Assembly: GCF_000015145.1 (NCBI RefSeq)
Contig: NC_008818.1
Span: forward strand, 60,001-92,000
DNA: 32,000 bases
From: Hyperthermus butylicus DSM 5456
GTDB taxonomy: Archaea; Thermoproteota; Thermoprotei_A; Sulfolobales; Pyrodictiaceae
Direction: 5' to 3'
In this document: piece after piece, positions 13,075 through 13,144 of the stretch
Numbering within the stretch: position 1 is the first letter of the stretch
Layout of the letters: the number at the start of each line of letters is the position of its first letter
Made by a program: the position numbers and the translations under genes
The notes under the pieces: generated by a model
Told to the model about the DNA's origin: nothing
The model's input: only the letters and a program-made list of their open reading frames with translations
The model's database searches: none

Positions 13075-13144
13075 TGTGCCCCGCCTGACCGACCCGCTTC
13101 ATTGCCCCGTCGCCGGGTCTCGGCGGGTGTGAGACCGGCGGGGC
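13075..13144 (-). ncRNA. Candidate H/ACA-type pseudouridylation guide hairpin
   Basis: The minus strand reads GCCCCGCC|GGTCTCAC|ACCCGC|CGAGA|CCCG-GCGA-CGGG|GCAATGAA|GCGGGT|CGGTCA|GGCGGGGC|ACA. This gives a lower stem, a pocket, an upper stem, a K-turn-like GA/GA with 3-nt asymmetry, and a GNRA-capped apex. The ACA directly follows the lower stem, 14 nt from the top of the pocket. The pocket strands complement a conserved LSU rRNA segment as I remember it. Confidence 0.5.

Follow-up and report, generated by a model that had tools for sequence, protein, structure and literature searches.

What is encoded by the short interval between a cupin gene and a divergently transcribed DUF460 gene of Hyperthermus butylicus DSM 5456? 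We analysed a window of 32,000 nucleotides (contig NC_008818.1, positions 60,001 to 92,000 of the forward strand; all coordinates below are those of the window), in which an element of 70 nt occupies positions 13075-13144 of the minus strand, with the cupin gene on the same strand and the DUF460 gene on the plus strand. An earlier reading made from the letters alone, hereafter the sequence-only reading, had taken this element for an H/ACA-like guide RNA whose pocket fits a conserved segment of 23S rRNA. Our results indicate that it is very likely a functional H/ACA guide for the 23S uridine equivalent to Escherichia coli U2593. Its fold, a match to the Rfam family Pab91, 15 copies in related genomes and covariation identify it as a single-hairpin H/ACA box small RNA (sRNA) gene of the Pab91/Ape7 type.

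From 13144 to 13075 the minus strand reads GCCCCGCC-GGUCUCAC-ACCCGC-CGAGACCCGGCGACGGGGCAAUGAA-GCGGGU-CGGUCA-GGCGGGGC-ACA. The lower stem P1 is formed by GCCCCGCC (13137-13144) and GGCGGGGC (13078-13085), is 100% paired in the 14 distinct sequences of the family and is directly followed on its 3' side by the ACA box (13075-13077), which is invariant in the 15 copies. Two single strands make up the guide pocket. The 5' strand is GGUCUCAC (13129-13136), and its GUCUCAC, invariant in the 15 copies, makes a 7-bp match to GUGAGAC of 23S helix 93, 3' of the target UC. The 3' strand is CGGUCA (13086-13091), and its likewise invariant CGGUC makes a 5-bp match to GACCG, 5' of the target U. In the upper stem P2, ACCCGC (13123-13128; an A followed by CCCGC) pairs with GCGGGU (13092-13097), and five of these pairs are 100% paired in the family. 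The remaining 25 nt (13098-13122) contain a kink-turn (K-turn), a distal C-stem and a GCGA loop. The non-bulged strand of the K-turn is C-GA-G, the bulged strand is C-AAU-GA-A, and the apex is CCCG-GCGA-CGGG. The K-turn thus has tandem G.A/A.G pairs and a 3-nt bulge, which is AAU, UGU, GAU or UAU among the copies, and it lies 5 bp and one non-Watson-Crick pair above the pocket. GAG and UGAA are invariant in it. It is the presumed binding site of L7Ae, as recognised from its sequence motif. The distance from the top of the pocket to ACA is 14 nt (the 6-nt 3' strand and the 8-bp stem), or 15 nt if position 54 is unpaired.

The sequence-only reading had described the same geometry, and its stems, pocket strands, K-turn, apex, ACA box and 14-nt spacing were all found where it had placed them on the minus strand. 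Its 6-bp upper stem, however, applies to the H. butylicus sequence and not to the family. The closing A-U occurs only in a minority of orthologues and is otherwise A.G or A.C, the partner of A17 being U, G or C, so that the conserved upper stem is 5 bp with a non-Watson-Crick pair, as in the Pab91 consensus.

Does this fold persist under the conditions in which the organism might use it, and is it the only fold available? At 37 C the minimum free energy (MFE) structure calculated with ViennaRNA is identical to the centroid and is the H/ACA hairpin, at -39.5 kcal/mol. The lower stem, the pocket and the upper stem are retained in the MFE structure at 70, 85, 95 and 105 C, in agreement with the high-temperature check proposed with the sequence-only reading. 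That reading had also cautioned that a helix between CCGGUCUC and GAGACC(C)GG could form instead, which would occlude the 5' guide and leave the H/ACA fold non-functional. The helix is indeed feasible, and 96.6% of its cells are pairable in the orthologues. However, its best structure is 7-10 kcal/mol less stable than the H/ACA hairpin at 37-70 C and is still inferior at 85-105 C, and its conservation is no better than that of column shuffles (142 of 500). Its pairing relies on guide and K-turn columns whose invariance has other causes, and the G-to-A change in loci L007 and L011 has no compensating partner in it. We dismissed this helix on energy and covariation and regard it as extremely unlikely to displace the H/ACA hairpin.

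Further evidence comes from related genomes. DUF460 homologues were aligned, 80 related genome loci were fetched, and a pattern-plus-stem search was then carried out. The RNA was found in 11 loci from metagenome-assembled genomes (MAGs) of the Pyrodictiaceae, directly upstream of DUF460. A covariance model built from these Pyrodictiaceae copies, R1, finds those copies alone in 651 kb, and it finds single copies with 89-103 bits in Pyrodictium abyssi, Pyrolobus fumarii and Pyrofollis japonicus. With the family-built model, 14 orthologues score 72-103 bits. In total there are 15 copies, 14 of them distinct, in Hyperthermus, Pyrodictium, Pyrolobus, Pyrofollis and MAGs, and they are syntenic. No homologue was found with R1 beside DUF460 in more distant loci of Desulfurococcales, Sulfolobales or Methanomethylicia.

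In the 15 copies, 98% of the stem cells are paired. Four pairs have changes on both sides: two in the apical stem and one at the top of each of the lower and upper stems. The lower-stem top pair varies among C-G, U-G and U-A, and the upper stem shows one compensatory change from C-G to G-C (its top pair) and one from C-G to U-G. In 500 shuffles, the percentage of paired cells, the numbers of double changes and the covariation score always stayed below the values of the alignment. The sequence-only reading had proposed the stems of orthologous loci as a test, and compensatory changes are present in them. When the partners were slid by 1-3 columns, the pairing was halved. RNAalifold, applied to a MAFFT alignment, independently gave the same architecture.

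The diagnostic part is the pattern of conservation. GUCUCAC, CGGUC, GAG...UGAA and ACA are invariant, that is, the unpaired guides, the K-turn and the ACA box are fixed, and the apical stem and loop drift with compensatory changes. This pattern bears on the idea that the element is a GC-rich hairpin without guide function, whether as a terminator, as a 5' element that regulates the cupin operon in cis, or as a palindrome that arose by chance. The element does lie upstream of the cupin gene on the same strand, and the 73-mer, folded in isolation, has a modest z-score (-2.4; 2 of 200 shuffles were equally good). In a plain hairpin, however, the conservation would be expected in the reverse arrangement, whereas here the unpaired pocket strands, ACA and the K-turn bases are the most conserved. 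The full-length match to an H/ACA covariance model, described below, also speaks against a plain hairpin, as does the retention of the element despite changes of its flanks: it is inverted in L008, lacks the cupin gene in L017 and is accompanied by an extra gene in P. fumarii. A hairpin without guide function is therefore very unlikely.

Could the region instead be protein-coding? Open reading frames (ORFs) overlie the element on both strands: one of 776 codons on the plus strand (12973-15303) and two small ones on the minus strand (12969-13157 and 13022-13168). The long one is, on alignment evidence, a 5' over-extension of the DUF460 gene, because the deposited NCBI protein starts at 13156, past the element, and homologues align only from residue ~25-31. 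In addition, the conservation across the element is structural, with paired columns and indels in the apical loop, and is not codon-like. The sequence-only reading had called these ORFs spurious, and we came to the same view; that the element is the 5' part of the long ORF or one of the small minus-strand ORFs is hardly credible.

We then consider how the element relates to described RNA families. Rfam was run at gathering thresholds on the window, and a permissive local scan was made of 12850-13350. At gathering thresholds, two tRNAs only were reported in the whole window and the element was unlisted. In the permissive scan, Pab91 (RF02795) matched exactly 13075-13144 on the minus strand (model positions 1-57, 34.2 bits, E-value 9.6e-5), and this was the sole sub-threshold Rfam match that spanned the element exactly. 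The covariance-model check suggested with the sequence-only reading thus yielded a full-length match to an H/ACA family. The alignment to the Pab91 model covers the guide strands UCUCAC and CGGUC, which are identical to the consensus, as well as both stems and ACA. The orthologue in L009 matches Pab91 with 37.4 bits (E-value 6.7e-6), and its apical part aligns to the K-turn of HgcE/Pab105 (GAGG...CAAUGA).

What would this RNA guide? In H/ACA RNAs the pairing is crosswise: bases 5' of the target U bind the 3' pocket strand, and bases 3' of the unpaired U-N bind the 5' strand (PMC3726423). By this rule the predicted target is 5'-GACCG-UC-GUGAGAC-3', which forms 5 + 7 bp with the pocket strands, and the sequence expected in helix 93 of H. 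butylicus is GACCGUCGUGAGAC. In rrlH of E. coli K-12 the homologous string GAACGUCGUGAGAC corresponds to G2588-C2601, so the target is U2593 and A2602 is located nine bases downstream. The sequence-only reading had put the site a few nucleotides 5' of the A2602 equivalent, and its placement was correct. The archaeal large-subunit (LSU) consensus of Rfam, LSU_rRNA_archaea, reads GGGUUUAGacCGuCGuGAGaCAGguCGG at this site. In that model the target u is paired in helix 93 just under the GUGA loop, and the A2602 equivalent is a bulge.

The target string was not found in the window or in the 80 genome loci. A metagenome scan supplied 120 archaeal- and bacterial-type 23S fragments, from which the most G+C-rich operons (L133 and L195; 66-67%), confirmed as archaeal LSU/SSU (SSU, small subunit), were taken as surrogates, and every U of their 16S and 23S rRNAs was tested. 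The helix-93 site is the only 12-bp guide match in both operons, and the next best sites have 6-7 bp. The proposed pairing of the pocket around a UC of 23S rRNA is thus consistent with the archaeal consensus and is the unique best site in the two surrogate operons. In the same scan, many bacterial-looking 23S genes (GGGUUCAGACCG...; L179, L189, L117 and others) also had the 'archaeal' GACCGUCGUGAGACAGGUCGG form of helix 93, so the C2590-G2604 pair is not diagnostic of archaea.

The same uridine is an experimentally established target in Pyrococcus abyssi. Pab91 of this species is expressed, guides formation of 23S pseudouridine (Psi) 2685, which was detected in vivo by carbodiimide (CMCT) treatment and reverse transcription (CMCT-RT), and is highly active in reconstituted small ribonucleoproteins (sRNPs) (PMC2377435). 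Two pseudouridines are present in helix 93 of P. abyssi, and active pocket-to-ACA spacings in this organism are 14-15 nt (PMC2377435). Since the Pab35 sites 2549, 2672 and 2697 are equivalent to the RluE, RluC and RluB sites 2457, 2580 and 2605 of E. coli (PMC2377435), the offset between the two numberings is 92 and Psi2685 is E. coli U2593. The Pab91 substrate was assayed by nearest-neighbour transfer from [alpha-32P]CTP (PMC3726423), which indicates a U-C target.

Compared with Pab91 and its Thermococcales relatives Pfu91 and Pho91 (RF02795), the H. butylicus RNA has the same single hairpin with ACA, identical UCUCAC/CGGUC guides, an upper stem of 5-6 bp that starts at the A.G/A-U position, a spacing of 14-15 nt and the same helix-93 uridine as the target. 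It differs in its host, which belongs to another phylum (Thermoproteota; Pyrodictiaceae), in its lower stem of 8 bp (9 in Pab91), in pocket strands that are 1-2 nt longer, and in its apex, where a true K-turn and a distal stem (25 nt) take the place of the 13-nt K-loop of Pab91. Common descent with Pab91 and convergence on the same target cannot be told apart. Ape7 of Aeropyrum pernix, which is predicted for 23S position 2444, the Pab91-equivalent position, and for U35 of pre-tRNA-Tyr (Muller et al. 2009, PMC2651775), is, by its description, a crenarchaeal (Desulfurococcales) single-hairpin K-turn H/ACA RNA with an equivalent 23S target and differs in its additional predicted target, Psi35 of pre-tRNA-Tyr. 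The simplest reading takes the H. butylicus RNA as the counterpart of Pab91 and Ape7 in the Pyrodictiaceae.

The second target of Ape7 raises the question of whether the H. butylicus guide acts also, or instead, on U35 of an intron-containing pre-tRNA-Tyr(GUA). The sequence-only reading was silent on the tRNA-Tyr U35 targets of Ape7 and Sso1/sR115, and on the conserved sRNA next to the element, which is described below. Besides the prediction for Ape7, Sso1 is active on pre-tRNA-Tyr (PMC2651775), and deletion of sR115 in Sulfolobus islandicus removes Psi35 (PMC11077068). By inspection, CGGUC could pair with the typical tRNA sequence G30-A31-C32-U33-G34 by way of one G.U wobble, and the arrangement of H/ACA and C/D genes at the H. 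butylicus locus resembles that of the Sulfolobus tRNA-Tyr guide locus. On the other hand, both guides are invariant in four genera and match an invariant rRNA site perfectly, whereas tRNA introns usually drift, so that the guides would need to co-vary with them. The 5' guide would moreover require GUGAGAC after U35-A36, made up from A37 and the intron. Intron-mode ARAGORN found no tRNA-Tyr gene in the window or in 83 loci and thus gave no direct support for this target. Taken together, a role of the H. butylicus guide on tRNA-Tyr is unlikely.

Several points weigh against the assignment of the element as a guide for helix 93. The 34.2 bits of the Pab91 match are below the curated gathering cut-off of 71 bits, although the E-values are significant for local scans, and since the score of L009 is below it as well, the element is not a member of RF02795 by the rule of Rfam. 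The target U is in lower case, that is, less conserved, in the archaeal LSU consensus of Rfam, and the target was assessed on this consensus and on surrogate metagenomic operons only. The evidence for H. butylicus consists of sequence and computed folds. The homologous guide lineage of Sulfolobus (Sso1/sR115) acts on tRNA-Tyr and not on rRNA. Finally, divergence is low (~93% mean column identity), with 11 of 18 pairs never varying and 4 of 18 compensatory, so that the evidence from covariation is real but thin. Despite the sub-cut-off score, the element plainly would work like the Pab91 family, and we consider the helix-93 guide function very likely.

If so, the mechanism would follow that of the H/ACA family, from which it is taken. 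L7Ae would bind the apical K-turn of the sRNA, CGGUC would pair with GACCG and GUCUCAC with GUGAGAC of the pre-23S rRNA, and the U-C would remain free directly below the upper stem, at a distance of 14-15 nt from ACA. Before helix 93 folds, Cbf5 would then isomerise the U2593-equivalent, located in the 5' strand of that helix, to pseudouridine. A cbf5 gene has been reported in H. butylicus (PMC2738675).

The Sulfolobales offer a comparison at the level of the target. Sso1, Sto1 and Sac1, of which the S. islandicus equivalent is sR115, act on tRNA-Tyr U35 only, according to reconstitution and gene deletion (PMC2651775, PMC11077068), whereas the H. butylicus guide is predicted to act on rRNA. 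In S. islandicus, U2597 is equivalent to E. coli Psi2457, and U2733 is 2'-O-methylated (PMC11077068). Assuming a constant offset of 140, Um2733 would be the same helix-93 uridine, and this would imply that hyperthermophilic archaea modify this helix-93 base in different ways.

The class of the RNA, its mechanism and its target are already known, and our understanding of H/ACA ribonucleoprotein (RNP) function is unchanged. What is new is the presence of the guide gene in H. butylicus and in the Pyrodictiaceae generally, together with a neighbouring atypical C/D-like RNA. In the literature searched, no paper connects H. butylicus with H/ACA sRNAs. Annotations of H. butylicus and of the Pyrodictiaceae, a family that includes the most heat-tolerant cultivated archaea, have lacked this non-coding gene, which can now be entered. 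Pseudouridine sites of archaea are reported to be poorly conserved between orders (PMC2377435; PMC11077068), whereas a Pab91-type guide for helix 93, beside A2602 in the peptidyl-transferase centre, would be common to Thermococcales and Thermoproteota. A family-level covariance model detects these RNAs where the Rfam threshold fails.

What lies 3' of the guide? A second conserved, C/D-box-like sRNA was found on the same strand at 12978-13063, with 14 copies in the Pyrodictiaceae and a terminal stem GGCGG/CCGCC. It contains a box C-like GUGAGCG (13051-13057), a D' box CUGA (13022-13025), a C' box GUGACGU (13001-13007), a D guide (12987-13000) and a D-like GCGA (12983-12986). In the 14 loci the conserved blocks are, in order, GG(A/G)UGAGCG, GCCCCCU, CCCCU(A/U)GCCC-C-N-GA, a variable loop that usually contains a short stem, (G/A)UGA(C/A/U)G(U), and (G/A)CCGGGCCGG-NN-(GC/AU)GA-CC. 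The order C, guide, D', loop, C', guide, D is the layout of an archaeal C/D sRNA. A canonical archaeal C/D RNA has a box C RUGAUGA, a box D CUGA and guide spacers of ~12 nt. In the orthologues the boxes are C-like (G/A)UGAGCG, D' CNGA, and C' GUGACGU, GAUGAAG or GUGAUGU. The sheared G.A pairs are kept in both K-turns, and the D'-C' loop gains a covarying C-stem in most copies. In the terminal K-turn, Watson-Crick G-C/C-G pairs (positions 5-6 of C, 1-2 of D) occur where canonical boxes have U.U/G-C, and the AUGAUUG/AUGA of L009 is near-canonical and amounts to a double compensatory change. The terminal stem is moderately supported: 80% of its cells are paired, and 17-37 of 500 shuffles were as good. 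The C'-D spacer is 14 nt. The C-D' spacer of 23-27 nt is about twice the canonical 12 nt and takes the form of a tandem CCCCUAGC repeat in several copies. Permissive Rfam scans of 12850-13350 and of L009 gave no matching family for this sRNA.

Targets of this RNA were judged on the surrogate 16S rRNA of L195. The D guide CCGGGCCGG, which does not vary, forms a perfect complement of CCGGCCCGG, at about E. coli 16S 585-593. The C-rich blocks CCCCUAGCCC and GCCCCCU are complementary to overlapping parts of GGGCUAGGGGGC, at about E. coli 648-659, ~60 nt downstream. These sites are the two strands at the base of 16S helix 21, where CCGGCCCGG and GGGCUAGGGG would be expected in H. butylicus. Both sites are present in one of 25 SSU genes of the fetched loci, the hyperthermophile-type gene of L195. 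We conclude that 12978-13063 is probably an atypical C/D guide.

Other structures in this region were also considered. The strong hairpins 13018-13073 and 12985-13019, as extra H/ACA hairpins or terminators, were dismissed because their stems are not conserved in the orthologues, and those 'loop' and 'stem' sequences that are conserved make up boxes and guides of the C/D type. We also dismissed a local K-turn hairpin, GGGGU-GA-GCGCG...CGCGC-GA-CCCU, since it occurs in H. butylicus alone. Positions 13061-13073 can form an uninterrupted 13-bp helix, GCCCUCAGAGGGC/GCCCUCUGAGGGC, with 13018-13030 on the minus strand, and this helix links the H/ACA-C/D linker to the D' guide and the D' box. It was seen in H. 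butylicus only, not in the orthologues, and it could be a precursor-processing structure or due to chance.

Are the two RNAs made together? In H. butylicus the gap between ACA and the C/D terminal stem is only 11 nt, too short for a second promoter. A shared precursor is therefore suggested, and the two RNAs may be co-transcribed in this organism. In other orthologues the spacer is 18-90 nt, and a T-run together with a TATA-like element is sometimes present in it (L009, L018). L008 has the two genes on opposite strands and L017 lacks the C/D gene, so their linkage is common but not obligatory. A similar arrangement is known in Sulfolobus, where a C/D motif (Sso-159/sR4/sR39) comes straight after Sso1, Sto1 and Sac1 on the same strand. 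In S. solfataricus, a northern blot of Sso1 and Sso-159 revealed both a long transcript that combines H/ACA and C/D and a short H/ACA RNA (PMC2651775). The C/D partners in Sulfolobus are predicted for 23S rRNA, whereas the C/D-like RNA of the Pyrodictiaceae matches 16S helix 21. The locus thus extends the H/ACA + C/D pairing of Sulfolobus to a second order. The Pab21-sR9 composite of P. abyssi is similar in that an H/ACA guide is located at the 5' end of a transcript with a C/D guide, and two RNA forms were detected for it by northern blot (PMC2377435). It differs in its guides and targets (Pab21 acts on 16S position 891) and in its euryarchaeal host.

A joint reading of the locus, which we put forward tentatively and consider possible but doubtful, is that it represents an ancestral-type bifunctional H/ACA + C/D guide gene of the Thermoprotei. 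The H/ACA half could have kept its original helix-93 target, which is pseudouridylated in Thermococcales and, by numbering, 2'-O-methylated in Sulfolobus, where the guide could have moved to tRNA-Tyr. The C/D half could be a new structural variant, with a Watson-Crick stem as the non-canonical stem of the box C/D K-turn and a C-D' spacer of double length. Its two overlapping antisense blocks in the spacer could be directed to one strand of 16S helix 21 and its D guide to the opposite strand. If this is true, the C/D-like RNA would have a folding-chaperone role beside, or in place of, methylation.

How transcription of the locus starts is suggested by an A/T-rich CCUAAUAG element at 13178-13185 on the minus strand, 34-41 nt upstream of the hairpin, which is a candidate TATA box. 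The element recurs in seven orthologues, and a (C)CCTAATAGC-like form is present at an equal distance in L001, L007, L011, L018, L204 and L206. It may be the promoter of the sRNA, and it could equally serve the divergent DUF460 gene.

The DUF460 gene is annotated at 13156-15303 on the plus strand. Its product matches Pfam DUF460, is 100% identical to the NCBI H. butylicus protein and is conserved from ~13234. The deposited start (ATG at 13156) gives ~25 residues that are found in no homologue, and this segment (13156-13236, plus strand) overlaps the presumed sRNA promoter region. The real start is probably near 13228-13237, as the alignments suggest. The cupin gene (Pfam Cupin_2) is located downstream at 12525-12932 on the minus strand, the same strand as the sRNAs, and synteny with it is seen in Pyrodictium abyssi, P. 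fumarii and Pyrofollis. Three loci depart from the usual gene order. In L008 (3634-3903) the H/ACA gene has been inverted with respect to the C/D gene and DUF460. Pyrolobus fumarii (L205, 1191-2500) carries an inserted gene, for a pyridine-nucleotide oxidoreductase, that separates the sRNAs from DUF460. In L017 (700-950) there is neither a C/D RNA nor a cupin gene.

Two further observations concern other parts of the window. A tRNA-Cys(GCA) gene at 17597-17698 on the minus strand has a 25-nt intron after position 37. It is detected by Rfam and by intron-mode ARAGORN and missed by default ARAGORN. The G+C content is 0.45-0.50 in positions 1-7000 and 0.56-0.60 in 7000-14000, with a step at ~7000, downstream of tRNA-Val (5064-5141), and the segment marked off by this step may be integrated or foreign DNA.

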